Positions 4,586-32,658 of a stretch of DNA of 64,000 nt are shown in pieces. The translations under genes were made by a program, and so were the position numbers. This DNA is from Clostridia bacterium. Lineage in GTDB: Bacteria; CBDUZB01; JAGLHV01. Under the pieces are notes generated by a model. The model made no database searches, was not told where the DNA came from, and was given only the letters and a program-made list of their open reading frames with translations. Position 1 is the stretch's first letter; each line of letters begins with the position of its first letter. The stretch covers positions 1 through 64,000 of the forward strand of contig DAOVVV010000006.1 in the NCBI GenBank assembly GCA_030637025.1, written 5' to 3'.

Positions 4586-4691
4586 TTAAAAATAGGAAAC
4601 ATGGGGAGTGTAGCTTAAAGTTTTAAGGTTTAGCAAGATAAGGAGGGGAGTTCTATTTTTTAATTAAGACAAAAGAATAACAAAAAGATTT

Positions 4692-4910
4692 TTGTTATCA
4701 ACATTGACCTACCCGGGGAGTTTTTTTCAGTCCCATTCGAGAAACAAGCCTGCACTGGCCACTTCGTCTTTGCTCAGAGTAAACTCTGTCGAAGGGTGAG
4801 TTTATCTCCTTTCTTTTTTCCACAGTTAAAAATTTTTAAAATACCACCACATATATTCCTTTCCGAAAAAAGAGATTACATATTTTTTTATATTGTAAAG
4901 TTTTTACGAA
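4692..4910 (+). repeat. Intergenic direct repeat core copy 3 with REP-like insert and shared right flank
   Basis: Core at 4692-4723; right flank (AAAATACCA..ATATATTCCTTTC.GAAAAA...) also at about 535-620 and 9147-9250. Confidence 0.85.
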
Positions 4911-11540: not shown

Positions 11541-12188
11541 ATGACTACAAGTATTTTAATTGCTGATGACCATGAAATTGTTCGGGATGGATTAGCACAG
11601 ATATTAAACAAAAATTCCGATATAAAGGTAATAGGACAGGCAAGAGATGGAATGGAGGCAGTGAAACTCTGTGATAAACTTAAGCCGGATATAGTTATTA
11701 TGGATATAGGCATGCCAATATTAAATGGTATAGAAGCTGCTAAACGAATTATAGCAAAAGATAAATATATCAAAGTTATAATACTATCTATGTATTGTGA
11801 TGATACTAGTGTGATGCGTGCTGTAGAATCAGGAGTATCGGGGTTTGTGACAAAAAAAGGTGCAAGTAAAGAATTGATTGAAGCCATACATGCTGTAGCA
11901 GCCAAAAAATCGTATATGAGCCCTGAAGTTTCATCTCAAATATTTGAAAACATAAGATACCATAGAGATACCAAGAATAAATTAGATGTTCTTACGAAAG
12001 CAGAAAGACATATATTGCAGCTAATTGCAGAAGGATATACTACTAAAGAAATAGCAAATATGTTAGAAATAAGTTTTCACACTGCAAAAACACACCGCAA
12101 CCACATAATGGAAAAACTTGATTTACATACCGTTGCTGACCTTACCAGATACGCCCTGGAAAATAAAATTACCTTAGACAACAAATAG
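11541..12188 (+). CDS. NarL/LuxR family response regulator
   Basis: IADDH, MDIGMP receiver; LT..ER.ILQLIAEG..TKEIA..L.IS LuxR HTH. Confidence 0.93.
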   Translation: MTTSILIADDHEIVRDGLAQILNKNSDIKVIGQARDGMEAVKLCDKLKPDIVIMDIGMPILNGIEAAKRIIAKDKYIKVIILSMYCDDTSVMRAVESGVSGFVTKKGASKELIEAIHAVAAKKSYMSPEVSSQIFENIRYHRDTKNKLDVLTKAERHILQLIAEGYTTKEIANMLEISFHTAKTHRNHIMEKLDLHTVADLTRYALENKITLDNK

Positions 12189-12387
12189 TATTTTTTCTCA
12201 AATTTACTCCGTTAGAAATTTTGAAAATATTGAAGTCTGATAGCTGCAATTTTAATTCTCCAATCTACTTTGGCGAAATTTCTACCGGGTTTGGGAATAG
12301 GTTATTTTTTTTCAAAAAATAGGGCATTTGACCGATTGTTATATTTATGAAGTCATGTATAATAGACGGGAGGAGGGTAAAAGTTTT

Positions 12388-12786
12388 ATGATTTCGGCTA
12401 ACAAGTCACCTAGAGTTTTAATTGTCGATGACGATAAATATACGAGAGACAGTGTAAGGGCCCTTATGTCAAAATGGCATATTGAGATAGATGAAGCGGA
12501 AAGTGGTACTGTTGCAATCGAGAAGTTGAAAAAAAGAAAATATTCATTGATGTTACTTGATATGCGAATGGAAGATAAAAATGGCTTGGATGTTTTGGAA
12601 GAGATGAAAAGATGCAATATTTCTATTCCAACCATATTGATAACAGCGTATCCTTATGATGAATGTGTTGAAATAGCAATGAAAGACAATGTAGTTCTAT
12701 ATCTTGCTAAGCCACTTAATTTAGGTGAATTAAAGAAAGCAGTTGCAGGTTTCATTGATATCTCCGGCACTAAACAATACAATTAG
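12388..12786 (+). CDS. Single-domain response regulator
   Basis: VLIVDDD, LLDMRM, ITA, LAKP; start after GGAGG. Confidence 0.88.
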   Translation: MISANKSPRVLIVDDDKYTRDSVRALMSKWHIEIDEAESGTVAIEKLKKRKYSLMLLDMRMEDKNGLDVLEEMKRCNISIPTILITAYPYDECVEIAMKDNVVLYLAKPLNLGELKKAVAGFIDISGTKQYN

Positions 12787-12803
12787 TAGAATTGGAGTAA
12801 GCT

Positions 12804-12905
12804 ATGTTAGCAGAAATTACGGATAACGGCTTTGAGAAAAATGTAAAAAGGACAGGATATTCTTTTGTAATTGTATTCTCTTCATCAAGGAAAAACAATT
12901 TATAA
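12804..12905 (+). pseudogene. Thioredoxin-like N-terminal fragment
   Basis: RBS GGAG; MLAEITDNGFEKNVKRTGYSFVIVF resembles a thioredoxin N-terminus, diverges and stops before WCxxC. Confidence 0.45.
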
Positions 12906-12941
12906 GATAGGCATTCTAAATAGTCAGATAGGAGGTCTTGT

Positions 12942-13112
12942 ATGGAATTATGGAGATTTATTAAACCGTTTGGTATTGTAACTTATGTTTTAATTTTGTT
13001 GACTTTAATAAGTGGATTATTCAGATGGAAACTGAAATATCACAAAACATTAGCTATTTCTACTTTGATTTTGGCGAGTATACATGCTTTAATTGTAATT
13101 TTATATCATTAA
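12942..13112 (+). CDS. 56-aa two-TM membrane microprotein with H-x13-H helix (not in ORF track)
   Basis: RBS AGGAGG; MELWRFIKPFGIVTYVLILLTLISGLFRWKLKYHKTLAISTLILASIHALIVILYH. Confidence 0.7.
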   Translation: MELWRFIKPFGIVTYVLILLTLISGLFRWKLKYHKTLAISTLILASIHALIVILYH

Positions 13113-13127
13113 GGAGGTGATAATCTT

Positions 13128-13484
13128 ATGAAAAGAATCTTTTTCGTAGTTTTTTTGGGATTGATCTTTTTAGGTTGTGGTAAGAAGGAAGAGGTAAAAA
13201 AAGAAATGGTGATGGAAGAGCAGGAGATTATGCATCATGAAAAGACGGAGCACTATGTAGAAATGGAGAAAACGGAAAAAGGTATAGAACAACAGGGTGA
13301 AGTAGTAATCAGAAAACCACTTGAAGGTGAAATAGGGAAAGCAGTTACCTGTCCGGTAATGGGAACTAAATTCAAAGTAAAAAAGAACGGATTAGTTGCT
13401 GATTATAAGGGTAATAGTTATTACCTGTGTTGCTCAGGGTGTATAGAACCATTTAAGAAGAATCCTGAGAAATACGCTGAATAA
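13128..13484 (+). CDS. YHS/TRASH domain lipoprotein (metal, probably copper, binding)
   Basis: Lipobox IFLGC; Met/His/Glu-rich linker; CPVMG...YYLCCSGC...F.KNPEKY. Confidence 0.82.
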   Translation: MKRIFFVVFLGLIFLGCGKKEEVKKEMVMEEQEIMHHEKTEHYVEMEKTEKGIEQQGEVVIRKPLEGEIGKAVTCPVMGTKFKVKKNGLVADYKGNSYYLCCSGCIEPFKKNPEKYAE

Positions 13485-13572
13485 AAACTGAAGGAACTCG
13501 GAATTCTTCACACTGTCGTGGCACAGATGGTTTTATGTGCCAGAGTATGTATAGAGAGGAGGTGAAATAAAG

Positions 13573-13704
13573 ATGGCAGTGGAAAAAACAGGAGAAAAAT
13601 ATAGATGTAATGTTTGTGGCAATGAAGTTACTGTCACCAAGGCAGGGGGTGGTGAATTAGTGTGTTGTGATCAACCAATGGAAAAGATAGGAGAGGGGGA
13701 CTGA
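13573..13704 (+). CDS. Desulforedoxin-like FeS4 iron-binding protein (43 aa, not in ORF track)
   Basis: RBS AGGAGGTG; YRCNVCGNEVTVTKAGGGELVCCDQPM. Confidence 0.88.
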   Translation: MAVEKTGEKYRCNVCGNEVTVTKAGGGELVCCDQPMEKIGEGD

Positions 13705-13784
13705 AAAAGCCAAAAGATCCAGTATTCAGGATGGATGTTGATAAAAACAAAATAACCCAAAGGAATTATAAAAAAATTAAAAAC

Positions 13785-14471
13785 ATGAAACAATTTTCCA
13801 TAATAATACCAGTATTTAATGAAATGCATATTATAAATTCTATTATTGAACATCTTTATACTTTAAAAGGAGAAGAAGATTTTGAAATTATAGTTGTTGA
13901 TGGAAATTCTGAAAGAAAAACTATAAAGACTATTAATGATGAAAGAATAATTGCAATTACTTCTGAAAAAGGACGTGCTAAACAAATGAATACCGGGGCT
14001 GATATTGCTAAAGGGAAAATTCTTGTTTTTGTTCATGCTGATACTAAATTACCTGAAAATGCGTTAAAAAAAATTAGCAAAATATTAAAAAAAGATAATT
14101 ATATAGGCGGAGCATTTGATTTGGAAATAGATTCGAATAATCTGATTTTAAAATTCATATCTTATACCGCCTCTATCAAGGCAAAATTTACTAAGGTACC
14201 GTATGGTGATCAGGTAATTTTCATAAGGAAAGATTATTTTAATAAAATTGGCAGGTATAAAGAAATTTCACTTATGGAAGATGTAGAATTAATGCAAAGA
14301 ATTAAGAGAGAAGGAGGCAAAATTTTCATCATTAAAGACAAAGTAAAAACTTCACCAAGGAAATGGATAGAAAATGGGATAATTTATAATACTTTAAAGA
14401 ATAATATAATAAGATTACTATATTATTTTGGAGTATCGACGGAAAAGCTGGCAAAATTTTATTATAACTAA
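13785..14471 (+). CDS. GT2 glycosyltransferase, rSAM/selenodomain-associated transferase 2 (TIGR04283 type)
   Basis: SIIIPVFNE, GRAKQMN.GA, FVHADT, PYGDQ..F, MEDVE, TSPRKW. Confidence 0.88.
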   Translation: MKQFSIIIPVFNEMHIINSIIEHLYTLKGEEDFEIIVVDGNSERKTIKTINDERIIAITSEKGRAKQMNTGADIAKGKILVFVHADTKLPENALKKISKILKKDNYIGGAFDLEIDSNNLILKFISYTASIKAKFTKVPYGDQVIFIRKDYFNKIGRYKEISLMEDVELMQRIKREGGKIFIIKDKVKTSPRKWIENGIIYNTLKNNIIRLLYYFGVSTEKLAKFYYN

Positions 14472-14483
14472 GGATCTTCAATT

Positions 14484-16469
14484 ATGGGACAAAAAACATT
14501 CTGGAATGAGAAGACGGTGTATAAGGACCAAATATCTATAGCCCAGATCAATCTTGGCAATAGGTGTAACCAGAATTGTACTCATTGTCATATAGCTGCA
14601 TCGCCTAAGGGTAACAAAAATATGAATTCTGTAACAGCAGAAAAAATAATGAATAAACTTTCTGCTTCAGATATAAGAGATATAGAATTTACAGGCGGAG
14701 CACCGGAACTAAATAATAACTTAAAAATTTTTGTTGAAAACTTATCAAAACAGAATAAAAATTTAATTGTAAGAACGAATTTAACTGCTCTTGATTTATC
14801 TGAATGTTCATTTTATATTAACTTATTTAAGAGAAATAAAGTAAAACTTATTGCTTCACTGCCGAATGTTTTTAAAGAAATAGTTGATAAACAACGGGGC
14901 AACGGTGTTTTTAACAAAAGTATAAAAGTTTTAAGAAAATTAAATAAAATTGGGTATGGCACAAATGGATTATCTCTGGATCTTGTATATAATCCAATTG
15001 CAGATTTTTTACCACCTGACCAAACACAAATTGAAAATGATTATAAACAAGGGTTAAAAGATAAATATGATATTTATTTTAATAACCTTATAACAATAGT
15101 TAACTCACCAATAAAACGGTTTAAAAAATTTCTTAAAAGAGAAGGGCAATTGAATAATTATATAGAATTACTTAAAAAACATTATAATCCAGCTACACTT
15201 GATAACATAATGTGTCGTAAATTAATTTCTGTCGACTATGCCGGGGATGTATACGACTGCGATTTTAATCTTGCTTTGAATAGAAAAATAAAGAATTGGG
15301 AGAATATTAAATTCTGGGATATAAATTTCAATAATTTTAGACCAACAATTAGTTGTGATAATCACTGTTATGCTTGCACTGCAAATCGTGGTAGTAGTTG
15401 TCATGGAGTTTTAATAAAAGATTTTGATGTTAAAAAGAATGTAAAAGAATATTATGGCGAAAAATTACAAAAGACATCAGATTTGAAAACAAACGCCTGT
15501 TGTACCGTTGAGGCTATACCTGAACGGATAAAGAGTTCCCTATCTTTAATATACGATGAAATAAAGATGAAATATTATGGCTGCGGTTCACCGATTCCTA
15601 TTGAGGTAAAAGGATTGAAAGTGCTGGATGTAGGTTGTGGTACTGGTAGAGATTGTTACATCATGTCAAGACTTGTTGGAGAAAAAGGGATGGTTTATGG
15701 TATAGATATGACGAAGAATCAAATAGATGTTGCCCAAAAATATGTAAAAAACCAAACAGTAAAGTTTGGATATAAAAAACCAAATATAAAGTTTATTAGG
15801 GATTATATAGAAAATATCGGTAAACATTTTGAAGATGAATATTTGGATATTGTGATGTCAAACTGTGTAATAAACTTGACAGAAGATAAAGAAGCAGTTT
15901 TAAAACAGGTTTGTAAGATTTTAAAATTTGGTGGTGAATTTTATTTCTCTGATATCTACACTGATAGAAGATCTCCTGACCCGGTTAGAAAAAATCCAAT
16001 ATTATACGGGGAATGTTTAGGGGGAGCATTGTATTATAAAGATTTTGATAGGATAGCGAGAAAAGTTGGATTTACGAATCCCCGTGTTATATCCAAAAGA
16101 GAAGTTAAAATAAACAATCCTAATATAAAAAGCCTGGTTGGAAATATAAAATTTTATTCTATTACATATCGCTTATGGAAACTAAAAGGACTTGAAGATG
16201 CATGCGAAGATTATGGGCATATAGCAATATATAATGGCGGAATACCTGAATCACCTTTTAAGTTTGAGCTGGATGATGTACATGTTTTCTATAAAGGGAA
16301 ACCTGAAAGAGTCTGTGGAAATACCGCACTTATGTTGTCACAGACAAGGTTTAAAAAGTTTTTTGTCATATGTGGTGGTTTTAATGAACATTTTGGTGAA
16401 TTCAAAGATTGTTCAAATGTAAGTAAAGATGATACAAGTAATTCCACTGATGGGGGTTGTTGTGAATAA
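14484..16469 (+). CDS. arsS-arsM: Fusion: arsenosugar radical SAM ArsS (with DUF3641-type tail) + arsenite methyltransferase ArsM
   Basis: CNQNCTHC, TGGAPELN, YDCDFNLAL, HCYACTANRGSSC; then VKEYYG, TNACC, YYGCG, LDVGCGTGRD, SNCV, GECLGG, C-terminal GGCC. Confidence 0.88.
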   Translation: MGQKTFWNEKTVYKDQISIAQINLGNRCNQNCTHCHIAASPKGNKNMNSVTAEKIMNKLSASDIRDIEFTGGAPELNNNLKIFVENLSKQNKNLIVRTNLTALDLSECSFYINLFKRNKVKLIASLPNVFKEIVDKQRGNGVFNKSIKVLRKLNKIGYGTNGLSLDLVYNPIADFLPPDQTQIENDYKQGLKDKYDIYFNNLITIVNSPIKRFKKFLKREGQLNNYIELLKKHYNPATLDNIMCRKLISVDYAGDVYDCDFNLALNRKIKNWENIKFWDINFNNFRPTISCDNHCYACTANRGSSCHGVLIKDFDVKKNVKEYYGEKLQKTSDLKTNACCTVEAIPERIKSSLSLIYDEIKMKYYGCGSPIPIEVKGLKVLDVGCGTGRDCYIMSRLVGEKGMVYGIDMTKNQIDVAQKYVKNQTVKFGYKKPNIKFIRDYIENIGKHFEDEYLDIVMSNCVINLTEDKEAVLKQVCKILKFGGEFYFSDIYTDRRSPDPVRKNPILYGECLGGALYYKDFDRIARKVGFTNPRVISKREVKINNPNIKSLVGNIKFYSITYRLWKLKGLEDACEDYGHIAIYNGGIPESPFKFELDDVHVFYKGKPERVCGNTALMLSQTRFKKFFVICGGFNEHFGEFKDCSNVSKDDTSNSTDGGCCE

Positions 16470-17238
16470 GGATATATACTGTAACTTTAATAATTTATTT
16501 ATTAGCTTTATATTATTGCTCACTATAGGAATAGATTTTGTGTCTGCTGAGGCACCTTTTTTTAATATTAGCAGTTATGTGGTTTCTGGAGTGAAAGAAG
16601 ATATTAAATTAAATCTTATTGATTATGAAAGTCTTTCAAAAAATAGTGGGTTTTCCGGTGTATTTAAATTTTTACATAAATTTAACCCGGATAAATTAAA
16701 ATCAGATGATGAGAAAAAAGCGTTCTGGATAAATGTTTATAATTATGGAGCAATAAAAATAGTTGTTGATAATCTCCCGCTAAATTCAATAAAAGATGCA
16801 GGAACAATTTTTTATTCGGTATGGAAAAAAAAGTTGATAGTTGTTGGAGGTAAAAGGTATTCGTTAGATGATATTGAACATAAAATATTAAGAAAAGAAT
16901 TTAATGATCCGAGAATACATTTTGCAATTGTTTGTGCATCTTTAAGTTGCCCGGATTTAGCAGTAGGACCTTTTACTGCGAAAAATCTTGGTGAACAGTT
17001 AGATATAGCCACAAGGAAATTTCTTAAGAATAAGACTAAAGGGATTAAATTAGATAGAAAAAAAAATATATTATATATATCAAAAATATTCAATTGGTTT
17101 GAAGATGATTTTATAGTATATAAGAATGTTTTAAGTTTTATAAAGAAATATGCCCCGCAGGATGTCATTAAACATTTAAAAAAACACGATGTTAAAATAG
17201 AATATTTCCATTATGAGTGGTCATTAAATGAGCAATAA
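16462..17238 (+). CDS. DUF547 domain protein with signal peptide
   Basis: AFWINVYN, SLDDIEH.ILR, DPRIHFAIVCASLSCP, YEWSLNE; probable GTG start overlapping upstream stop. Confidence 0.88.
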   Translation: MNKDIYCNFNNLFISFILLLTIGIDFVSAEAPFFNISSYVVSGVKEDIKLNLIDYESLSKNSGFSGVFKFLHKFNPDKLKSDDEKKAFWINVYNYGAIKIVVDNLPLNSIKDAGTIFYSVWKKKLIVVGGKRYSLDDIEHKILRKEFNDPRIHFAIVCASLSCPDLAVGPFTAKNLGEQLDIATRKFLKNKTKGIKLDRKKNILYISKIFNWFEDDFIVYKNVLSFIKKYAPQDVIKHLKKHDVKIEYFHYEWSLNEQ

Positions 17239-17953
17239 CACAAATTGTATTCTTTTTTTTGTTAAATATCCTGAAAAAGGGAAAGTTAAAACACGTATTT
17301 CTGCACAAATTGGGGAGAGTCCCGCGGTAAGTTTGTACAGAAATTTTATATTAGATTTGTTAACCACTTTGAATAAAATAGAGGTGCCTTTATATATATG
17401 TTATTATCCTAGAAATTCAAAAAGAAAATTCTTTGATTGGTTAGGAACAGAATATAATTATATGTTACAAAAAGGGCGGAATTTAGGTGAAAAGATGAAA
17501 AATGCTTTTTTCCAGGTATTCAAAAATGATTATGATAAAGTTATTGTTATGGGGAGTGATAGCCCTGATTTGACTCGTGAAATAATTATACAAGCTTTAT
17601 CATCGCTCGAAACAAATGATGTTGTAATAGGTCCTTCTTTTGATGGGGGATATTATCTGTTAGGATTCAGGAAAAATACTTTTTATCCGTACGTATTTAA
17701 GGGAATTAAATGGAGTACAAATTCTGTTTTTGAGAATACAATTAATATTCTGAATAAGAAGGGATATAAAATTAAAATTTTAAATAAATGGCAGGATATA
17801 GATATAGTTGATGATTTAAAAATACTTATCGATAGAAACAGAAAAACTGAATTTAAAAATTCTAAAACAATCAAGTATCTTTCAGAACTTAATCTGAGCG
17901 CATTACAAACAGGAGAAAAAGAGTGTATAAAAAAATCTCTGATTATGGATTAA
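17228..17953 (+). CDS. rSAM/selenodomain-associated transferase 1 (TIGR04282/DUF2064 type, CofC-like fold)
   Basis: KYPEKGKVKTR, Q.G.NLGE.M, GSDSPDL, GPSFDGGYYLLG, WST, DID..DDL. Confidence 0.9.
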   Translation: MSNNTNCILFFVKYPEKGKVKTRISAQIGESPAVSLYRNFILDLLTTLNKIEVPLYICYYPRNSKRKFFDWLGTEYNYMLQKGRNLGEKMKNAFFQVFKNDYDKVIVMGSDSPDLTREIIIQALSSLETNDVVIGPSFDGGYYLLGFRKNTFYPYVFKGIKWSTNSVFENTINILNKKGYKIKILNKWQDIDIVDDLKILIDRNRKTEFKNSKTIKYLSELNLSALQTGEKECIKKSLIMD

Positions 17954-20580
17954 TAGGGAATATGCATACAGTAGCATTGGTTTCTAATGATGGTTCTATA
18001 GATTATTGTTCTATGCCGGATATTGATTCTCCCACAATATTTGCAGCTTTGCTGGATGATGAAAAAGGAGGATTTTTTAGAATTCAACCGATAAATAATT
18101 TTAAATCTAAGCAGAGATATATAAAAGACACGAACATCTTAAGTTGTGAGTTTCGTACAGAAAAGGGTTTAGCGCAACTTAGAGATTTTATGCCGGTAAA
18201 TACTGATAAATTGTTTGAAAAAGATGATTATACAATTCATAGATGCCTTAAAGTTGTTTCAGGGAATATGGATTTTGTTCTGGAAATAGCTCCACGGCCA
18301 GTGTATGCGATGGAGAAACCTATTATAAAGAGGCATGATAATATATTTATTATAGAAACCAAAAAGGAAACATTTCAATTTATAATAGAGTGTGATAAAT
18401 ATGATGTGTTGGAGAGAAATAACGATACTATTATAATTAATTTTTCCTTAAAAACAGATCAAGCAGCTCATTTTTCCTTTATATATGGTGAAAAGAATTT
18501 AAATGAAATTGATTTTTGTGGTTTTGAATCAACAAGAAAATTCTGGATTGATTGGCTTTGGTCAACTGTTGCCAAACAATATTCCGACCTTGGTGAATAT
18601 TCAGATATGATTAATAGATCTCTCTTAGTGCTAAAACTTCTTACGTTTAAACCTACCGGTGCTATTGCAGCTTCTGCTACAACCTCTCTTCCTGAATTTT
18701 TAGGAGCAGGACGTAACTGGGATTATCGTTATACGTGGATAAGAGACAGTTCTTTTACATTAAAGGCAATGTTTGCTCTCGGTCACATTAGTGAAGCAGA
18801 TAGATTTATTCAATGGTTACATAATACATATAAAAAACACGGAACTCAGAACTTAAAAATTATGTATTCGTTAAGAGGGGAAAGTAATCTTAATGAAAAA
18901 ATTCTTGAACATTTAAAAGGATATAAAAACTCAAAACCGGTTAGGATTGGGAACGAAGCTTCGGACCAGAAACAATGGGATATTTATGGAGAAGTAATGG
19001 ATACGGCATTAAATCTTTCAAATTATGCAGGTAAAATAGATGAAACATTATGGCCGTTTTTTAAAGATGTATGTAACCTTGCTATGAAAAACTGGGTATA
19101 TCCGGATGATGGAATCTGGGAAGTAAGAAATGGTCCTTTTCATTTTGTCTACTCAAAGGTGATGTGTTGGGTTGCGTTAGATAGAGGTATTAAGATTGCG
19201 AAAAGATATGGTTTTGATGCCCCTTTAGAATGGAATAAAAAAAGAGATGAAATTAAAAAAGACATATTACAAAAAGGATTTGATAAGGAATTGAATAGTT
19301 TTGTGCAGTATTATGGTTCCAAAGAGGTAGATTCAAGTCTTCTTTTGCTTGGATTAATGAATTTTCTACCTATGGAAGATAAACGTATTCAGGGGACAAT
19401 AAACGCATGTAAAAAATATTTAATGAAAAATAATTTTATTTTGCGATATGTATCGAATGACGGACTTCAAGGAAAAGAAGGAGCTTTTTTACTTTGTAAT
19501 TTTTGGTTTATAGAATGTTTAGCTCTTTCAGAAAAAATAGAAGAAGCACGGAATTTACTTAAAATTACTTTAAAAGCCGCTAATCATTTGGGATTATTTT
19601 CTGAAGAGTATGATTTTAAAAATAATGAAATGTTAGGAAACTTTCCTCAAGCATTCAGTCATATAGGTTTTATCAATGCTGTGTCAGCAATTTTAAATAT
19701 TCAGAATAAAATGTCTATTGAAAAACCACGTATTTCCCTTGCTAAACAAATGCAAAAATTTATTCCGGTAAAAGTTAACTTAAATAAATCCGATATTAAA
19801 GTTTCTGATACAAGTAAAGATATTGCAGTTAAACTAAAAGTTACATTGAATAATTTACAAGGAGCATTTTTTGATGTTTTTGCAGGAAAGGTCAATTATG
19901 AAGCATTAAGGAAATCGGAGAGTTATAAAACCTATTTGGAATTAGCCGCAAAACTTAATGCATTTAATCCATCTGTTCTTAAGACAGATGATGAAAAGAA
20001 AGCCTTTTGGATTAACGTATACAATATTTTGATTATAAACGGGGTAATATATTTTAATATTAAGAAATCAGTTAAAGAGGTATTTAATTTCTTTAATCGA
20101 ATCGGATATAGTATCGGGGATATGTACTTTAGTCCGGATAATATAGAACATGGTATATTACGAAGTAATAGACCACATCCCGGTTCAGGGAAAGTACTAT
20201 TCTCCTCATCGGATAAGAGAAATAGTTTAATTGTGAATAATTTTGATTGTAGAATTCATTTTGCACTTGTATGTGCAGCAAGTTCATGTCCGCCGATTGA
20301 ATTTTATGATGCTTCAAAGATAGATGAGCAACTTGATGTTGCAGGAAGAAGCTTTGTAAACCGTAGAGGTGTTGCGATTGATAAAGAAAATAACGAAGTA
20401 TACTTATCACAGATATTTAAATGGTATGCGGAAGATTTTGGTAAGAATACAAATGAAGTACTGAAATATGCAGTCAAATTTACAGATAAAAATACAAGAG
20501 AGTTTGTTTTAAATAACATAAGAAAAGTTACTGTTAAATATTCTTCATATGACTGGAATTTAAATGCTTTATTAGTATAA
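17923..20580 (+). CDS. Glycoside hydrolase family 15 (trehalase/glucoamylase-like) fused to C-terminal DUF547
   Basis: DYGLIGN, TTSLPE, RNWDYRYTWIRD, GIWEVR, GLFSEE, LGNFPQAFSH; then AFWINVYN, RIHFALVCAASSCPPI, YDWNLN. Confidence 0.9.
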   Translation: MYKKISDYGLIGNMHTVALVSNDGSIDYCSMPDIDSPTIFAALLDDEKGGFFRIQPINNFKSKQRYIKDTNILSCEFRTEKGLAQLRDFMPVNTDKLFEKDDYTIHRCLKVVSGNMDFVLEIAPRPVYAMEKPIIKRHDNIFIIETKKETFQFIIECDKYDVLERNNDTIIINFSLKTDQAAHFSFIYGEKNLNEIDFCGFESTRKFWIDWLWSTVAKQYSDLGEYSDMINRSLLVLKLLTFKPTGAIAASATTSLPEFLGAGRNWDYRYTWIRDSSFTLKAMFALGHISEADRFIQWLHNTYKKHGTQNLKIMYSLRGESNLNEKILEHLKGYKNSKPVRIGNEASDQKQWDIYGEVMDTALNLSNYAGKIDETLWPFFKDVCNLAMKNWVYPDDGIWEVRNGPFHFVYSKVMCWVALDRGIKIAKRYGFDAPLEWNKKRDEIKKDILQKGFDKELNSFVQYYGSKEVDSSLLLLGLMNFLPMEDKRIQGTINACKKYLMKNNFILRYVSNDGLQGKEGAFLLCNFWFIECLALSEKIEEARNLLKITLKAANHLGLFSEEYDFKNNEMLGNFPQAFSHIGFINAVSAILNIQNKMSIEKPRISLAKQMQKFIPVKVNLNKSDIKVSDTSKDIAVKLKVTLNNLQGAFFDVFAGKVNYEALRKSESYKTYLELAAKLNAFNPSVLKTDDEKKAFWINVYNILIINGVIYFNIKKSVKEVFNFFNRIGYSIGDMYFSPDNIEHGILRSNRPHPGSGKVLFSSSDKRNSLIVNNFDCRIHFALVCAASSCPPIEFYDASKIDEQLDVAGRSFVNRRGVAIDKENNEVYLSQIFKWYAEDFGKNTNEVLKYAVKFTDKNTREFVLNNIRKVTVKYSSYDWNLNALLV

Positions 20581-20606
20581 AAAATATTTAGCTAAACGGA
20601 GGAGAA

Positions 20607-21434
20607 ATGGACAGGATAAGTTGTCTACTGGATGGAAATAGACTTAAAAATCAGATAGCTCTTGTCACAGGAGCGAACTCCGGGATAGGTAAAGCAATAG
20701 CAAAGGCTCTTGCTTTGGAAGGGGCAAAGGTTGTTATTAATTATGTTACCAATGAACCGGAAGCAGAGAAACTCGTAGATGAAATAAAAAAAGATGGTTG
20801 TGAAGCTATGGCTATTCAAGCAGATGTCAGTAGAGAAGAACAGGTAAAAGAAATGTTTCAGAAGATGTATGAGAAATATAGAACAATCGATATTCTTGTA
20901 AACAGTGCAGGTATACAGAAAGATGCTCCTTTTGTAGATATGACAATTGAACAATGGAAAAAAGTCATTGATGTAAACCTTACCGGATCTTTTCTTTGTT
21001 CAAGAGAAGCTACCAGAGAATTTATCCGGAGAGGAGTAGTTAATGAAAAATCAATATGTGCCGGTAAAATTATTTTTGTAAGTTCTGTTCACCAGGTTAT
21101 TCCCTGGGCAAAGCACTGTAATTATGCAGCATCAAAAGGAGGTATAATGCTTTTAATGAAATCAATCGCCCAGGAAGTTGCTTCCTATAAAATACGTGTA
21201 AATAGTATTGCTCCCGGAGCCATTAAAACTCCTATTAATAAAGTAGCCTGGGAAACACCTGAAGCAGAAAAAGAATTGTTGAAATTAATCCCTTACAATA
21301 GGGTGGGGGACCCTCAAGATATTGCCGCTGTAGCAGTATGGCTTGCTTCAGACGAGTCTGATTATGTACAGGGTACTACAATTTTTGTTGATGGGGGGAT
21401 GACCCTTTATCCAGGATTTGCTACAGGGGGATAG
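20607..21434 (+). CDS. Glucose 1-dehydrogenase-type SDR
   Basis: TGANSGIG, SSVHQVIPW, YAASKGG, VDGGMTLYPGFATGG. Confidence 0.88.
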   Translation: MDRISCLLDGNRLKNQIALVTGANSGIGKAIAKALALEGAKVVINYVTNEPEAEKLVDEIKKDGCEAMAIQADVSREEQVKEMFQKMYEKYRTIDILVNSAGIQKDAPFVDMTIEQWKKVIDVNLTGSFLCSREATREFIRRGVVNEKSICAGKIIFVSSVHQVIPWAKHCNYAASKGGIMLLMKSIAQEVASYKIRVNSIAPGAIKTPINKVAWETPEAEKELLKLIPYNRVGDPQDIAAVAVWLASDESDYVQGTTIFVDGGMTLYPGFATGG

Positions 21435-22127
21435 ATGACTAAAACCCATAATAAACATTTACTAAAACCAGTAATTTTTATTCTGATTATTGTAGGATTA
21501 ATAATAATTTCTCGTACTTTAGGGTTAGGGCAGAAACTCGGTGAATTGAAAAACTGGATAATGACAATAGGAATCTGGGGCCCAATTGTTTTTATATTTT
21601 TATATGCAATTGCTACTGTAGCTACTATACCCGGTTCAGCACTTACTTTAGCAGCCGGGTCTATGTTTGGTTCAGTGCTTGGTGTTATAGTTGTAAGCAT
21701 AGCTTCTACTTTTGGAGCCAGTCTTGCATTCCTTGTGGGTAGATATATTGCTCGTGATTCAGTTTCAAAATGGCTTAGTAATAAGGAAAAATTTAAGAAA
21801 TTAGATGATTTAACTAAGAAACATGGGAATATTATTGTGGCAATAACAAGACTTGTTCCTCTTTTTCCTTTTAATCTGCTTAATTATGGATTTGGCCTTA
21901 CAAACGTATCTTTCAAGGTGTATGTATTTTGGTCATGGTTATGTATGTTACCCGGAACCGTAATTTATGTAGTAGGAGCAGATGTTGTCACAAAGGCTAT
22001 GACTCAAGGAAAGATTCCGTGGTTTTTAATAATAATACTCATTATAGTCATAATTGTTATTACGATTATTGCAAATTATATTAGAAAATACCTGAGGGAG
22101 AAAGGAAAAAATGAGCATGGAATATAA
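21435..22127 (+). CDS. TVP38/TMEM64 (DedA/VTT) membrane protein
   Basis: PGSALTLAAG..FG, RLVPLFPFNLLNY.FGLT, MLPGT. Confidence 0.9.
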   Translation: MTKTHNKHLLKPVIFILIIVGLIIISRTLGLGQKLGELKNWIMTIGIWGPIVFIFLYAIATVATIPGSALTLAAGSMFGSVLGVIVVSIASTFGASLAFLVGRYIARDSVSKWLSNKEKFKKLDDLTKKHGNIIVAITRLVPLFPFNLLNYGFGLTNVSFKVYVFWSWLCMLPGTVIYVVGADVVTKAMTQGKIPWFLIIILIIVIIVITIIANYIRKYLREKGKNEHGI

Positions 22128-23535
22128 TTATCAAGTTATTGTAATAGGTGCAGGAAGTGCCGGATTGGTTGTTGCTTCAGGATGTTCTGCTTTAGGGGCA
22201 AAAGTAGCATTGATTGAAAAAAACAAGACGGGGGGAGACTGTTTGAATACAGGTTGTGTACCAAGCAAGACTTTTCTTAAAAGTGCACATCTTGCAGGTA
22301 ATATTAGAAATTCACAGAATTATGGATTGAAAACAGTTTTAAATGATGTTGATATAAAGGAAGTTATGGCACGTGTAAAATCAGTAATTAAAGAAATCGA
22401 GCCAAATGATTCAAAAGAAAGATATGAAAAAATGGGAGTTAAAGTAATATTGGGAGAAGGAAAACTAATTAATAATCATACTGTTAAAATTGGTGAGGAT
22501 ATGATTACCGGGAAATATATAGTTATTGCCTCTGGTTCTGAGCCTATGGTGCCCCCAATTCCCGGACTTAAAGAAGTTCCTTATTTAACAAATAAGAACA
22601 TATTTAACCTTGAAAAATTGCCCAAACATTTGATTGTTTTAGGCGGTGGTCCTATCGGATTAGAATTGGGACAAGGTTTTAGATACTTGGGTTCTGAAGT
22701 ATCGGTAGTTGATATGCTTCCACTTCTTTTCCCTAAGGATGATCCGGAAGTATCACCTTTAATGGAAAAGAGACTTAAATCTGAAGGTATAAATTTATTC
22801 TTATCTTCAAAGATTGTTGAGGTTAGAAGTAATGCAAATGGTATTATTGTGATTATTGAAAAAGTGGGGAATAGAAAAGAAATTAAGGGAGATAATCTTC
22901 TTGTTTCTTTAGGAAGGTCGCCTATTAGTAAAGGTATAGGTCTGGAAAAATCAGGAGTAAAACTTGATAAGAAAGGATATATCCAGGTAAATGATACACT
23001 CCAGACGAGTGTTAGAAATATATATGCATGTGGCGATGTTGTAGGGCCATATCAGTTTACGCATATGGCAGGGTATCAGGGAAGCATTGTAGTAAGAAAT
23101 GTAATTTTTCCATTCAAGTCGAAAGTAGATTATTCCATCGTTCCATGGACAACTTATACTAATCCTGAAGTTGCACATGTCGGATACACTGAACCTTGGG
23201 CGAGATCTTTAGGTATATATAATGATTCCGTAATAATTAATCTTGAAGAAATAGATAGGGCCAGGACAGAAGGTGAGAAAACCGGATTTCTCAAATTGAT
23301 TCTTAATGACAAGAAAATTGTGATAGGAGCAACAATTGTAGGTGAAAAAGCCGGAGAAATGATTTCGATTGCTACTCTTGCTATTAAGAAGAAACTTAAG
23401 GCAACTGCTTTTAGTAATTTGATATTTTCTTATCCTACGGAATCAGAAATTTTTAAATTTGCTTCATACAAACTAATGAAAAAATCATTTAAACCCTGGA
23501 TGAAAAGAATAATAAAATCAATTTTCCTCAGGTAA
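22111..23535 (+). CDS. Flavin disulfide oxidoreductase (MerA/Lpd-like, no C-terminal Cys pair)
   Basis: GAGSAG, GGDCLNTGCVPSK, GGGPIGLE, CGDV..PYQFTH, YPTESE. Confidence 0.88.
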   Translation: MSMEYNYQVIVIGAGSAGLVVASGCSALGAKVALIEKNKTGGDCLNTGCVPSKTFLKSAHLAGNIRNSQNYGLKTVLNDVDIKEVMARVKSVIKEIEPNDSKERYEKMGVKVILGEGKLINNHTVKIGEDMITGKYIVIASGSEPMVPPIPGLKEVPYLTNKNIFNLEKLPKHLIVLGGGPIGLELGQGFRYLGSEVSVVDMLPLLFPKDDPEVSPLMEKRLKSEGINLFLSSKIVEVRSNANGIIVIIEKVGNRKEIKGDNLLVSLGRSPISKGIGLEKSGVKLDKKGYIQVNDTLQTSVRNIYACGDVVGPYQFTHMAGYQGSIVVRNVIFPFKSKVDYSIVPWTTYTNPEVAHVGYTEPWARSLGIYNDSVIINLEEIDRARTEGEKTGFLKLILNDKKIVIGATIVGEKAGEMISIATLAIKKKLKATAFSNLIFSYPTESEIFKFASYKLMKKSFKPWMKRIIKSIFLR

Positions 23536-23549
23536 AAAAGTTAGTTAAT

Positions 23550-23660
23550 TTAGTGGAAACATTGGGGACTAATGTCAAACCCGATTAATAAAGTATTATT
23601 ATTGTTTCTAATAATTTTTCGTAATTGATACAACTCGTTAATATTATTGATCTTGGTCAT
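23550..23660 (-). pseudogene. Truncated IS110-family transposase N-terminus
   Basis: Minus-strand RBS AAGGAGG then MTKINNINELYQLRKIIRNNNNTLLIGFDIS..., resembling the (L/I)xxG(I/F)D first RuvC-like motif; stop after 36 codons. Confidence 0.55.
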
Positions 23661-23768
23661 GAGGGTTCCTCCTTGTTTTAGTGTATGTCTTCACATAAAT
23701 TATAACCTAATAGAGGGGCTCTGTTGTTTAAAGTTTTAAAGTATGGGGGAAAGACGAAAAATATATTT

Positions 23769-23822
23769 TTGTTATCAATATTGATTTACCCGGGGAGTTT
23801 ATCCCCTTTCTTTCTTTTTCCC
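23769..23822 (+). repeat. Intergenic direct repeat core copy 4 (shortest form, no insert)
   Basis: TTGTTATCAATATTGATTTACCCGGGGAGTTT joined directly to ATCCCCTTTCTTTCTTTTTCC. Confidence 0.8.
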
Positions 23823-23979
23823 TTAACAAACCGGGTTTTTATTAATTCTATCAGTGACTTCGTCACTAGACGAGCCAGTTCCTCATACCAGCCTTTTCTT
23901 ATACATAATATTTTATTTATTTTTATATCGGGGGTGTCATATGTATTGTAGCATTCCCACTGCCCTTTAATTAAAAAGC

Positions 23980-24019
23980 TTGACAAAATAACAAACTGAT
24001 ACTATAATCATAGCAGTAT
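23980..24019 (+). promoter_or_regulatory. Consensus sigma70 promoter overlapped by imperfect inverted repeat (possible Rrf2 operator)
   Basis: TTGACA(23980)-17 bp-TATAAT(24003); ACTGATA...TAGCAGT flanks the -10. Confidence 0.7.
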
Positions 24020-24045
24020 AAGAATTTTTGTGGGGGGGGGGTAGA

Positions 24046-24462
24046 GTGAAGATTTTAACTAAAAATACAGATTATGCTATTCGTGCTTTAATAGTTTTGG
24101 CTTTGGATAAGAATCGTTTCATTTCGGCAAGGGAAATATCTCAAGAACAAAACATTCCTTATCAGTTTTTACGAGGGGTGTTGCGAAAATTAAAAAAAAA
24201 TAAGTTGATCGAATCCAAGGAAGGCATGGGCGGTGGGGTTCGTATTATTAAAAATTCAAAACAAATAAATATTTTTAATCTGATAAAAATATTTCAAGGT
24301 GATTTTGAAGTGTCCGAATGTATGTTTAAAAAAAATATTTGCCCTAACAGAAAGTCTTGTGTGTTGAGATCTGAGCTTAAACGTATTGAATATGATATTG
24401 GCGTAAAATTTAGGAATATTACATTGGCGAAATTATTAGCAAATATAGATAAAAAGTCTTAG
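24046..24462 (+). CDS. Rrf2 family transcriptional regulator with three C-terminal Cys
   Basis: TDYAIRAL, IES..G..GG, C-x6-C-x5-C; GTG start. Confidence 0.9.
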   Translation: MKILTKNTDYAIRALIVLALDKNRFISAREISQEQNIPYQFLRGVLRKLKKNKLIESKEGMGGGVRIIKNSKQINIFNLIKIFQGDFEVSECMFKKNICPNRKSCVLRSELKRIEYDIGVKFRNITLAKLLANIDKKS

Positions 24463-24507
24463 CGTGGATATGTGTAAGGAGATGTTTTAAATGGTTGTGA
24501 GTCTTTG

Positions 24508-24720
24508 ATGTTCAGGGAAATGGAAGATTATCTTGGGAGTGATTTCAAAATAATAAATTATGCTAAAGCAGTACTTGATTTTGCGAAGAAATTGATGAAT
24601 GCAGAAGGATGTGACGAGAAAGTCATTGTTCCATCAGCTAAATAAAAAAGAAAAAATCATTAATGAAAAATTTAAAACAAAAACAGGGATTGATTTAACC
24701 AGAAAATTATTTTTAAAAAA
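24508..24720 (+). pseudogene. Internally deleted HD-domain phosphohydrolase relic
   Basis: EMEDYLGSDFKIINYA..VL.FA..L...EG.D..VIV.SA stops just before the expected LHD motif; followed by a C-terminus-like KIINEKFKTKTG..L.RKLF. Confidence 0.5.
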
Positions 24721-24732
24721 GGAGGAATAAAT

Positions 24733-26610: not shown

Positions 26611-26670
26611 TTGACAGTCATATGCGATGAATGATATAATTACGCAGATTGCATAACGCATAATGCGTAA
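26611..26670 (+). promoter_or_regulatory. Sigma70 promoter and palindromic operator of AAA ATPase gene
   Basis: TTGACA(26611)-18 bp-TATAAT(26635); TTACGCA(26640)...TGCGTAA(26664). Confidence 0.7.
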
Positions 26671-30477: not shown

Positions 30478-30636
30478 GCTACTCATTCCCCCGGTTTTGT
30501 TTCCTGAAGATTTATTAAAATAAATCTAACCGCTGGGATGTATTTGCAAAACTAAGCAGGGGGGTAGCTGAAAACGGTGAAGAATGATAATGACGGCTCT
30601 TATATTTTGTTACTTGAATAATTGAAGAAGGTAAAA

Positions 30637-31725
30637 ATGGGAACAGTAATTCATGAAGAAAGAAGTTTGAGTTTTTTTGAGAAATATCTGACGCTATGGG
30701 TTATTGTCTGTATTGGATTGGGTATCTTGTTGGGGAAGATGTTTCCACAGGGTGCAATACTGTTGGATAGGTTCTCTGTTTATCAAGTATCCATACCGAT
30801 TGCTATATGCCTATTTTTTATGATGTATCCGATTATGGTCAAGATTGATTTTGCAGAAGTGATTAAAGCAGGGAAAACACCCAAACCGGTTATCATTACA
30901 CTGTTTGTTAATTGGTGCGTGAAACCTTTTACGATGCTTGCAATTGCTACATTCTTTTTAGGAGTATTATTTAAAGGATGGTTACCGGGAACTGAAATTA
31001 TAAAAGGAGGAACCGAGGTCGAGTTGTTCAGATCTTATATCGCCGGATGCATTCTTTTAGGAATAGCTCCCTGCACGGCAATGGTACTTATCTGGGGACA
31101 TCTGTCAAAAGGGAACGATGGGCATACGCTCGTTATGGTTGCCATAAATTCTCTTACCATGCTTTTTCTCTATGCTCCGCTTGGAGGATGGCTGCTTGGG
31201 GTGAATAAAATGCCTATTCCGTGGCAGACAATCGTTTTGTCCGTTGTGATCTATGTTGGGCTGCCTCTCCTTTTGGGATATCATTCAAGAAAGTGGATTA
31301 TAGCAAAGAAGGGGTTCAAATGGTTTGAAGAGAGATTCCTTCATTATTTGACACCGGTATCTATCATGGCTCTTCTTCTGACTCTTATTCTGCTATTTTC
31401 ATTTAAGGGTGAGTTGATTATCAATCAGCCTCAGGTGATTCTGCTTATTGCAATACCGCTTTTTATCCAGACATGTTTGATTTTTGTTTTGGGGTATGGA
31501 TTAGCAAAATGGCTTAAATTATCATATAGAGATGCGGCCCCATCAGCTCTTATTGGAGCAAGCAATCATTTTGAAGTTGCAATTGCCACGGCAACCATGC
31601 TCTTTGGTCTATCATCAGGAGCGGCTTTGGCAGCAGTGGTGGGGGTGTTGATTGAAGTACCGGTGATGCTCATGCTCGTACGGGTTTGTTTGAATACCAA
31701 AAGCCTATTTCGACAAGAAGGGTAG
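30637..31725 (+). CDS. acr3: ACR3 family arsenite efflux transporter
   Basis: [42 protein letters not shown]. Confidence 0.95.
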
Positions 31726-31800
31726 ATATGTATAATGAGGGGGACGGAGTGGGATTATCTTTGGAATGATTGAAAAATAAAACATTAGAAGGAGCTTTAT

Positions 31801-32658
31801 ATGAAAAGAAATGCCAAAAAAATTAGAGAAATTGTGAAAAAGGGCTATGCGAAAATTGCTAAAGAACAAGGAACTTGTTGTTCTCACAAAACGTGTTGTA
31901 GTGAGTCTGACCAGGCAAAAACAATAAGTAAAAGCATGGGGTATTCTAATGAAGAGATGCGTTCAGTGCCGGATGGGGCTAATTTGGGACTTGGTTGCGG
32001 GAATCCGGTTGCAATAGCATCGCTTAAAAGAGGGGAAGTCGTCTTGGATTTAGGTAGTGGAGCAGGATTTGATGCCTTTCTTGCTGCTCGTACTATAGGT
32101 AAGACCGGATATGTTATCGGTGTTGATATGACACCTGAAATGATAAAAAAAGCTGAAGATAATGCTCAAAAAAGTGGATTTGAAAATGTTGAATTCAGAC
32201 TTGGAGAGATTGAAAAGCTTCCTGTTGAAGATAACAGTATTGATATTGTTATTTCGAATTGTGTCATCAATCTATCTCCGGACAAGGAAAGAGTTTTTAA
32301 AGAAATTTTCCGTGTATTGAAACCCGGAGGCAGAATCATGATTTCTGATTTGATACTGGTTAAAGAACTGCCTGAGAAAATCAGGAAGTCCGTTGAATTC
32401 TATGTCGGTTGTCTTGCCGGAGCAGTTATGGAAAAAAATTACATCAATTTTATACTTCAGGCAGGATTTAAAAAGCCTGCAGTTATAAGCAGAGTTTCAT
32501 TTCCGATTGAAGCGATCTCGAATGATTCAACGGCTCAGGCACTATGCTCAAGAGAAGACATTAATGATAAAGATTTGGAGGAGATTAAAGATGCAGTGAT
32601 AAGTATTAAGATATCTGCTTTTAAATCATCTATAACAGGCGGAGGAAAAGGAAGATAG
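31801..32658 (+). CDS. arsM: Arsenite methyltransferase
   Basis: Y.KIA...CC...CC, ANLGLGCGNP, DLGSGAGFD, ISNCV, YVGCLAGA. Confidence 0.93.
   Translation: MKRNAKKIREIVKKGYAKIAKEQGTCCSHKTCCSESDQAKTISKSMGYSNEEMRSVPDGANLGLGCGNPVAIASLKRGEVVLDLGSGAGFDAFLAARTIGKTGYVIGVDMTPEMIKKAEDNAQKSGFENVEFRLGEIEKLPVEDNSIDIVISNCVINLSPDKERVFKEIFRVLKPGGRIMISDLILVKELPEKIRKSVEFYVGCLAGAVMEKNYINFILQAGFKKPAVISRVSFPIEAISNDSTAQALCSREDINDKDLEEIKDAVISIKISAFKSSITGGGKGR

Follow-up and report, generated by a model that had tools for sequence, protein, structure and literature searches.

A single-chain ArsS-ArsM fusion in a predicted eight-gene arsenosugar-type operon of a cold-seep bacterium

Enzymes of the ArsM and ArsS families occur as separate polypeptides in the oxygenic phototroph Synechocystis sp. 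PCC 6803 (Cheng et al. 2021, as cited in PMC12159101; PMC13598754). According to PMC13598754, ArsS adenosylates dimethylarsenite, DMAs(III), to 5'-deoxy-5'-dimethylarsinoyl-adenosine (DDMAA) in a redox-neutral reaction, and a cyanobacterial enzyme is the only ArsS given as biochemically tested (PMC13598754; reference 61 of PMC12159101). Other members of the ArsS family carry selenocysteine: a selenoprotein review enters TIGR04167 as GxxU (PMC13188914), the Sec standing at the equivalent place in the motif, close to the C-terminal end, and such proteins end 5-6 residues past the Sec or Cys. Among ArsM enzymes, CmArsM and CrArsM (PDB 4fr0 and 5evj) are stand-alone proteins of eukaryotic algae. 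The two families joined in one chain have also been named, as an "ArsSM fusion protein" from a sulfate reducer of paddy soil, in the title of Yang et al. 2024 (Environ Sci Technol 58:19266).

The protein described here resembles that last example, so far as a title permits the comparison, in being a single ArsS-plus-ArsM polypeptide of an anaerobe, while its host belongs to a cold-seep candidate phylum rather than to the sulfate reducers of paddy soil. Compared with Synechocystis, the enzyme families are the same and the route from As(III) through DMAs(III) to DDMAA is presumably shared, whereas the two activities would reside in one chain and in an anaerobe. The gene lies at 14484..16469 on the forward strand of the window (the whole 64,000-nucleotide stretch of DNA that was analysed) and encodes 661 aa, as defined by the ORF listing together with profile and structure matches. 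It begins with ATG, preceded by AAGGA 9 nt upstream, and its translation contains no internal stop. The uninterrupted 661-aa frame proposed in the sequence-only reading is thus borne out, and all of the motifs which that reading had listed (CNQNCTHC, HCYACTANRGSSC306HG, TNACC, YYGCG, SNCV, GECL and a terminal GGCC) are present in the translation.

The N-terminal half (aa 1-310; 14484..15413, forward strand) comprises a radical SAM core and a DUF3641 domain, which is a Cys-rich extension. It scored 365.5 bits against TIGR04167 (cut-off 300; E 2e-109), the match extending over aa 13-310 and model positions 3-303 of 303, and in the whole-genome profile search the fusion scored 367.5 bits against the same model. 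In Pfam, Radical_SAM was matched at 22-159 and DUF3641 at 176-308 (160.7 bits), so that the earlier assignment of this half to ArsS held against both families. When predicted alone, the domain gave a pLDDT of 90.5 and a pTM of 0.89. The codons of C28, C32 and C35, which form the CxxxCxxC radical SAM cluster motif, are located at 14565..14588 (forward strand), and cysteine occupies these positions in 118, 119 and 119, respectively, of the best 120 fused homologs. Further cysteines of this half (C244, C259, C295, C298 and C306) are invariant across 47 ArsS sequences.

The last of these residues, Cys306, occupies the Cys/Sec position of the family within the GSSC motif and is encoded by TGT at 15399..15401 (forward strand). 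Elsewhere in the ArsS family this position lies on a short free C-terminal tail, the unfused proteins stopping 5-6 residues past the equivalent Cys; in the fusion, where ArsM follows, the residue is internal and the tail forms an inter-domain hinge. In the predicted full-length model, the pLDDT falls below 50 at aa 303-314, the region that holds Cys306. The residue had been described from the sequence as cysteine here and selenocysteine in many homologs; both parts are upheld by the TGT codon, by a TGA at the equivalent of position 306 in 11 of 14 TGA-flagged unfused arsS genes that were fetched, and by the GxxU entry of PMC13188914. TGA-type genes are frequent among the unfused arsS genes of the same phylum. 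In contrast, cysteine is found in all of the best 120 fused homologs, and none of the 23 full-length fused genes recovered by six-frame search of the sampled genomes has a TGA at the hinge. That search would read through a TGA. What is new here is a property of the sequences compared: the fused ArsS forms have Cys, never Sec, at the predicted hinge, whereas unfused ArsS often has Sec. SelA and SelB had no match in the host genome, which fits a Cys at position 306.

The C-terminal half (aa 315-661; 15426..16469, forward strand) is an ArsM domain of the long AS3MT/CmArsM type, with a C-terminal domain and a terminal Cys pair. It aligned with 5evj (E 7e-100, aa 312-644 against 18-353) and 4fr0 (E 7e-88, aa 312-644) over all three ArsM domains at ~45-50% identity; in contrast to the stand-alone algal enzymes, its N-terminus is tethered to ArsS. 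C339, C367, C461 and C511 align with 4fr0 chain residues 44, 72, 174 and 224, that is, with CmArsM C44, C72, C174 and C224, which we take to be the conserved As(III)-binding cysteines. The predicted arsenic-binding codons of the fusion are accordingly C339/C340 (15498-15503), C367 (15582-15584), C461 (15864-15866) and C511 (16014-16016), all on the forward strand, and in the best 120 fused homologs the cysteines of this half are invariant except for C340 (119/120). With this full-length alignment and all four conserved cysteines kept, the claim of a complete arsenite methyltransferase stands. The half also contains the LDVGCGTGRD motif of the SAM-binding Rossmann fold and matched Pfam Methyltransf_31 (376-518, 110.6 bits). 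The profile check proposed for it nevertheless came out divided: the Pfam family was matched, while the cut-offs of all three curated NCBIfam ArsM models were missed (NF008823, 162 of 263 bits; NF038099, AsSugarArsM, 87 of 400; NF040538, 113 of 500). Homology to the solved enzymes combined with scores below these cut-offs identifies the domain as ArsM, yet outside the three sub-models, and in falling below NF038099 it differs from the Synechocystis arsenosugar pathway. As for the linker of about 10 residues suggested in the sequence-only reading, the short tether was confirmed and the length proved generous, since aa 310 is the last residue matched by the ArsS model and aa 312 the first in the ArsM alignment.

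The fusion gene belongs to a tightly packed, predicted operon of eight forward-strand genes, separated by successive gaps of 12, -41, -11, -31, 26, 0 and -17 nt. The first gene (13731..14471) encodes a GT2-family glycosyltransferase that matched Glycos_transf_2 and TIGR04283, an "arsenosugar biosynthesis glycosyltransferase" model (247 bits, cut-off 182). Downstream of the fusion are a DUF547 protein (16429..17238; PF04784, 104 bits), whose gene overlaps arsSM by 41 nt, and a DUF2064 protein with a CofC-like nucleotidyltransferase fold (17228..17953), which scored 199.8 bits against TIGR04282 (cut-off 134), likewise named "arsenosugar biosynthesis glycosyltransferase". These are followed by an 885-aa protein (17923..20580) in which a GH15 (glucoamylase/trehalase-like) domain is fused to a second DUF547 (Glyco_hydro_15, 238.7 bits; DUF547, 120.7 bits; TREH_N), and whose scores did not reach the cut-off of any named trehalase model. 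A short-chain dehydrogenase/reductase (20607..21434; adh_short_C2, 229 bits), a VTT/DedA-type membrane protein (21435..22127; VTT_dom, 105.8 bits) and a MerA-like FAD pyridine-nucleotide-disulfide oxidoreductase (22111..23535; Pyr_redox_2, 223 bits; NF004991, 488 bits, below the cut-off of 620) complete the set. Two helper genes thus exceed the cut-offs of NCBIfam models named for arsenosugar biosynthesis, and TIGR04283, TIGR04282, VTT, MerA-like, DUF547 and ArsM genes are repeatedly found near arsS across many phyla; the roles of the helpers are putative, being names derived from comparative genomics. A scan of 12700-24200 found 57 promoter-like sites (59.8 expected) and 6 terminator-like sites (4.4 expected), figures that are uninformative in DNA this rich in AT.

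In this cold-seep anaerobe the operon is accessory: the closest congener lacks the ~23-kb stretch that carries it. The GC content is 0.29-0.31 in the cluster versus 0.33-0.40 in the flanks, a difference too weak to argue for horizontal transfer or a donor from base composition. The host genome is 97.8% complete and represents a cold-seep candidate phylum of four genomes. It yielded no match to COX1 or Photo_RC, the window encodes a hybrid-cluster protein as well as a protein with a desulfoferrodoxin domain, and the runs with matching sequence are from cold seeps or marine sediment. On these grounds the host looks anaerobic and non-phototrophic, as had been supposed from the sequence. Three ArsM-type genes were detected in the genome, in separate contexts: an arsM with acr3, the ArsSM gene with its helpers, and a lone radical SAM-ArsM-DUF5714 gene on another contig (C77), with no helper genes alongside. 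Proteins of the last type also combine a radical SAM domain with an ArsM-like methyltransferase in anaerobes; they differ in having a radical SAM half that is not ArsS (42 bits on TIGR04167), a DUF5714 domain and a length of ~1000 aa.

The ArsS-ArsM fusion is found widely among anaerobic bacteria; NCBI already annotates it, and it is common in MAGs of the Nitrospirota type. All of the best 120 database homologs (56-67% identity, the nearest relatives at 64-67%) have the same architecture, and the six-frame search detected it in 21/401 and 2/401 sampled genomes of two other phyla. The count of this architecture proposed in the sequence-only reading thus gave a positive answer, and the novelty implied there does not survive it, given also the title of Yang et al. 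2024. Within the literature collection searched, no further description of the fusion was found. Near-invariant catalytic residues in the 120 fused homologs indicate that both halves are under selection, and in the trees the fused ArsS halves form one group, as do the fused ArsM halves. Two candidate fusions were rejected: locus L037, with a stop after GSSCGGATA followed by arsM in the same frame, and locus L038, a supposed reverse-order fusion that stops after the ArsS tail and in which ArsM is a separate gene. One protein (P0138) gave a single phmmer stretch covering 15-659, yet no blastp match with the N-half, and was left out of the fusion counts.

The reading that we favour, with a probability of roughly three in four, is that of a two-domain ArsSM-type enzyme which, judged by its domains and motifs, would open a pathway of arsenosugar type by catalysing its first committed steps. 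From the chemistry in the literature, the ArsM domain would bind As(III) through its conserved cysteines, converting it with two SAM to dimethylarsenite; the ArsS domain would reductively cleave a third SAM on the [4Fe-4S] cluster of CxxxCxxC, and the resulting 5'-deoxyadenosyl radical would react with the arsenic to give DDMAA. The seven helper genes, taken as co-transcribed, would then process the arsenical and probably export it or anchor it in the membrane. The fusion may hold back toxic, oxygen-labile DMAs(III) from escape, and Cys306 on the flexible hinge may share in the hand-over. Counting against this reading are the scores of the ArsM half, which lie under all three NCBIfam cut-offs, that of the arsenosugar-specific NF038099 included, and the putative nature of the helper roles.

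Other explanations for the locus were weighed against this reading. It is scarcely credible that the 661-aa frame is an assembly or frameshift artefact merging two neighbouring genes, even though adjacent arsS-arsM and arsM-arsS pairs do occur elsewhere, as at L037. The identical protein is recorded from 8 contigs, and the same single frame recurs in all of the best 120 homologs and in the 23 genomes of the six-frame search. Moreover, Logan contigs from two runs, which may be the source sample, cover the stretch from end to end with 3 substitutions and no gap, and two other studies supply related-strain contigs that run gap-free across 15390-15460 (X5 record 6, 15195-15797; X6 record 17, 15034-15841). 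The junction check, made on assembled contigs, therefore shows a crossing without indels in three studies; the fusion is a real gene, and its junction is no assembly artefact.

It is also rather unlikely that the fusion serves mainly to methylate arsenic so as to detoxify or volatilise it, with the radical SAM half in an accessory, for example regulatory or redox-sensing, non-adenosylating role. The ArsM half is complete by itself, and the title of Yang et al. 2024 stresses arsenic methylation and not arsenosugar synthesis, which counts against our main explanation. Against such a role, however, the genome already has a detoxification pair at 30622..32658 (forward strand), made up of acr3 (30622-31725; TIGR00832, 409.5 bits, cut-off 282.8) and a canonical short arsM (31801-32658; NF008823, 359.5 bits, cut-off 263); located 15 kb from the fusion, this pair would make detoxification independent of it. 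The radical SAM cysteines and ArsS-specific motifs are, in addition, invariant or nearly so in the best 120 homologs, and the gene lies within an operon of ArsS-typical helpers. Still more improbable is that the enzyme pair targets another metalloid (Se, Sb or Te), with "arsenosugar" an over-annotation. ArsM-type enzymes do accept other metalloids, and under the old TIGRFAM names the ArsS family and its helpers were at first described only as radical SAM/selenoprotein-associated. Biochemical testing is moreover limited to a cyanobacterial ArsS (PMC13598754; reference 61 of PMC12159101). This explanation is opposed by the retention of all four CmArsM As(III)-binding cysteines, by a score of the N-half above an equivalog-level ArsS cut-off, and by the lack of a match to SelA and SelB in the host genome.

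Under the favoured ArsSM reading, channelling of trivalent methylarsenicals between the two domains, as put forward in the sequence-only reading, is plausible. The structural evidence that bears on it is limited to a tether of very few residues and a hinge predicted with low confidence; in the full-length model (pTM 0.55) the domains are packed without confidence, and a defined channel is therefore unsupported. A more elaborate version joins several of these features and is, in our estimation, doubtful: Cys306 would act as an arsenic-carrying swinging arm that brings DMAs(III) from the ArsM cysteines to the radical SAM site; fusion would replace the need for a selenol, the stronger nucleophile, or else the ArsM coding sequence would leave no room for a SECIS element; and the eight-gene block would be a horizontally acquired, self-contained anaerobic arsenosugar/arsenolipid pathway.

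For the field, the finding changes little, the fusion being annotated by NCBI, common and published as ArsSM. It adds a clean example of the fusion in a very small cold-seep candidate phylum, where the whole helper operon is accessory, and the protein is a reasonable candidate for testing both the retention of DMAs(III) by the fusion and the role of the conserved Cys/Sec residue.

The ArsSM gene is an uninterrupted ORF on the forward strand (14484-16469, 661 aa), which in the ORF listing and translation has an ATG start and the motif AAGGA 9 nt upstream. All of the motifs quoted for it in the sequence-only reading are present in the translation, and the TGT codon for Cys306 lies at 15399-15401, as had been described. 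Pfam domains were assigned to Radical_SAM (aa 22-159), DUF3641 (aa 176-308) and Methyltransf_31 (aa 376-518). The assignment of the N-terminal half to ArsS held, since aa 13-310 cover the full length of the NCBIfam model TIGR04167, "arsenosugar biosynthesis radical SAM (seleno)protein ArsS", at 365.5 bits (cut-off 300). The C-terminal half was recognized as a methyltransferase by Pfam but fell under each of the curated NCBIfam cut-offs for ArsM (NF008823, 162 versus 263 bits; NF038099, 87 versus 400 bits). Despite these scores, it is a complete long-type (AS3MT-like) ArsM to which the short-type NCBIfam models give poor scores, because aa 312-644 align end to end with the ArsM structures 5evj (Chlamydomonas, E 7e-100) and 4fr0 (Cyanidioschyzon, E 7e-88), and C339, C367, C461 and C511 match 4fr0 chain residues 44, 72, 174 and 224, the As(III)-binding cysteines.

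The two halves are joined almost directly, head to tail, because the match to the ArsS model runs to aa 310 and ArsM homology begins at aa 312, and because unfused ArsS proteins stop shortly past the same Cys. Of the 58 motif-bearing ArsS genes in the fetched loci, five were fusions that continue into ArsM, while the 53 unfused genes stop mostly 5-6 residues on (range 4-34), typically as GSSCGGALA-stop. The continuity of the frame, on which the claim of a single polypeptide depended, was borne out by further contigs. The identical 661-aa protein is recorded on eight contigs; Logan contigs from two cold-seep runs, possibly the source sample itself, carry the whole 2.3-kb stretch with three substitutions and no gaps; and in two other studies, strains of 95-99% similarity have contigs that span the junction gap-free, with no indel listed.

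The proposed search for the same architecture elsewhere showed that it is populous; the kind already has a name and has been published. A word-indexed protein search with ArsSM returned 1700 proteins at E <= 0.001, the best 120 of which (619-706 aa, query coverage 93-100%, identity 56-67%, one identical) all carry Radical_SAM, DUF3641 and Methyltransf_31. Several of these 120, from Nitrospirota or Thermodesulfovibrionales MAGs, bear the NCBI name ArsS. In the same set, little or no variation is seen at the radical SAM cysteines, GSSC306 or the ArsM cysteines, and the stretch from G308 to the N-terminal helix of ArsM measures 16 residues in 73 of the 120. Yang et al. reportedly published an "ArsSM fusion protein" in 2024, a paper cited by three others.

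Fusions have arisen in both domain orders, since both occur in a representative library (50% identity; 10,532 matches at E <= 0.001, 672 at <= 1e-30), in which 11 of the best 150 matches contain both domains, six as ArsS-ArsM (two of them fragments) and five as ArsM-ArsS. A search of species-representative genomes matched 601 stretches, of which 574 were confirmed and the best 80 kept; five of these 80 loci (L034, L035, L036, L060 and L063) encode ArsS-ArsM fusions, in Nitrospirota, Dissulfurispiraceae, Nitrospiraceae and Thermodesulfovibrionales MAGs and an Arcobacter MAG. Adjacent arsM-arsS gene pairs were seen at several further loci, and one candidate, L037, was discarded as arsS-stop-arsM. 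In a six-frame search of 401 genomes from the phylum of L060, 264 matched at E <= 1e-40 and 21 carried a full-length, single-frame fusion (18 complete, one truncated where its contig ends, and two verified on fetched sequence). The corresponding search in the phylum of L064, a "delta proteobacterium" MAG, gave two fusions in 401 genomes, one of which shares 66% identity with the ArsSM of the window. None was found in 40 other genomes sampled around the host (three congeners and 37 of the same domain).

Quick maximum-likelihood trees were built from sets in which the fused members were the best matches to the query, and hence near relatives by construction. Read in that light, the ArsS-half tree (41 fused, 52 unfused) explains the fused state by one change, the fused halves forming a clade (SH-aLRT 98-100) that also contains two unfused genes, L056 and L064; likewise, the ArsM tree (41 fused and 26 unfused) groups the fused halves in a clade, supported at 99, that includes one unfused gene, L038. 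This last locus (L038:334-7160, from a Pirellulales MAG) has the full helper set and separate genes, arsM then arsS. Its ArsM is nested among the fused forms, with 65% identity to the window's C-terminal half, while its ArsS, encoded downstream of arsM, falls in another clade (44% identity); it looks as though an ArsSM gene had been split or had recombined. The trees fit one old ArsS-ArsM fusion lineage that spread over phyla, with occasional fission.

That the position of Cys306 is Sec in many ArsS homologs also proved correct. TIGR04167 is listed as a GxxU selenoprotein in a review table (PMC13188914). In the search of the L060 phylum, 34 of the 150 rows listed, all unfused ArsS, were flagged with one TGA (hand count). 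When 14 of these genes were fetched, 11 had TGA at the position of Cys306, with the true stop five codons on in ten and 11 codons on in one; the other three had Cys, and their TGA was an ordinary stop. In one sampled genome (L024) the codon that aligns with Cys306 is likewise TGA. The 11 fetched Sec-type genes (L122-L126, L128-L131, L133 and L134, from the phylum of genome G041) share the tail GS[ST]-TGA-xGxxx, followed in ten by a TAG stop, and in most of them translation of the downstream region gives QAVAC or QAG, which suggests an RNA element conserved just 3' of these genes, probably the SECIS. None of the 23 full-length fusions in the two phylum samples contained an in-frame stop in the six-frame search, which reads through stops. 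Thus, across these two samples, the hinge residue was Cys in every fused form examined, a pattern that we did not find stated elsewhere and that is the single modest new point here. The host genome (97.8% complete) has no match to SelA and none to SelB over the cut-off, so that Cys at 306 is to be expected.

ArsSM is the second of eight same-strand (+) genes, separated by 12, -41, -11, -31, 26, 0 and -17 nt. It is preceded by a TIGR04283 glycosyltransferase (13731-14471; 247 bits, cut-off 182) and followed by a DUF547 protein (16429-17238), a TIGR04282/DUF2064 protein (17228-17953; 199.8 bits, cut-off 134), an 885-aa GH15-DUF547 protein (17923-20580), an SDR (20607-21434), a VTT/DedA membrane protein (21435-22127) and a MerA-like FAD disulfide reductase (22111-23535), those without scores being assigned by Pfam. 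In a tblastn search with the operon's proteins against the 80 loci from species-representative genomes, the TIGR04283, TIGR04282, VTT, MerA-like, DUF547 and ArsM helpers recur near arsS across many phyla in variable order, and the operon is of the neighbourhood type that NCBI now labels arsenosugar biosynthesis. The 885-aa product joins a glucoamylase/trehalase-like GH15 catalytic domain to DUF547, the separate DUF547 gene lying two genes upstream; a GH15 match near arsS was seen at only one other fetched locus, L087.

The host phylum comprises four genomes of one genus, and the fusion occurs only in the host, the other three being 97%, 89% and 86% complete. Window positions 11541-23790 have no DNA-level counterpart in these congeners. 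A block of ~23 kb that includes the operon is absent at this site in the nearest relative, G001, because its contig C59 matches 316-505 and then directly 23792-28017 (91-97% identity). Both edges of the block are marked by copies (358-424 and 23734-23800) of a 67-nt repeat, also present at 4657-4723 and 27945-28011, which has 73-100% identity to a reference copy, has CCCGGGGAGTTT as its end, forms a terminator-like hairpin at 23792-23806 and recurs on many congener contigs. The left part of the block carries, at 723-4585, AbiEi-antitoxin-like, DUF6036 nucleotidyltransferase and Fic/DOC genes. The Fic region (3373-4592) has two copies in G001 (89-93% identity); positions 1-263 hold two tandem units of ~156 nt, long arrays of which occur in G001 contigs C175, C183, C3, C25 and C70 (70-83% identity). 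The block may have been lost in the other congeners, but its gain in the host lineage is the simpler reading.

The window also encodes acr3 followed by a canonical short arsM (30622-32658, +; 409.5 and 359.5 bits, the latter passing the NF008823 cut-off of 263). Next on the same strand is a gene for a 305-aa protein whose 4Fe-4S ferredoxin domain is HgcB-like, the set (30622-33582) lying 15 kb downstream of the fusion. Coexisting with the true ArsSM in the host genome is a 1044-aa protein on contig C77 (L114:9513-12647, - strand), with Radical_SAM (122-267), Methyltransf_31 (551-689) and DUF5714 (869-1041). Its methyltransferase domain scores 229 bits on NF008823, under the cut-off, and its radical SAM half reaches only 42 bits against TIGR04167; the gene is flanked by ones for a deaminase, a Fic protein and an AbiEi protein, and no helper genes adjoin it. 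The view of the host as anaerobic and non-phototrophic was upheld: COX1 and Photo_RC have no match in the 97.8% complete genome, genes for a hybrid-cluster protein and a protein with a desulfoferrodoxin domain lie in the window, and the DNA occurs in metagenomes that four studies obtained from cold seeps and marine sediments.

The full-length AlphaFold model of ArsSM (mean pLDDT 85.7, pTM 0.55; aa 303-314 below pLDDT 50) predicts two confident domains without confident packing, joined by a flexible hinge that holds Cys306, as its high mean pLDDT, low pTM and poorly modelled hinge indicate. Modelled alone, the ArsS domain reached pLDDT 90.5 and pTM 0.89. No ArsS structure was found in the PDB copy searched; among solved folds, the domain comes closest to radical SAM enzymes of the SPASM/twitch type (SkfB 6efn, E 3e-10, TMq 0.55; EpeE, BlsE, SuiB, anSME, MoaA and BtrN). 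Across 47 ArsS sequences, none of the five extension cysteines (C244, C259, C295, C298 and C306) varies, which would suit an auxiliary cluster together with a free thiol. The primary paper on ArsS adenosylation is that of Cheng et al. from 2021. As described in PMC13598754, ArsS adenosylates dimethylarsenite, DMAs(III), to 5'-deoxy-5'-dimethylarsinoyl-adenosine (DDMAA) in a redox-neutral radical reaction. In the fusion, the ArsM half would make DMAs(III) and the tethered ArsS half would adenosylate it, a functional reading well supported by homology and context; from the near-zero linker, channelling between the domains would be a reasonable inference.
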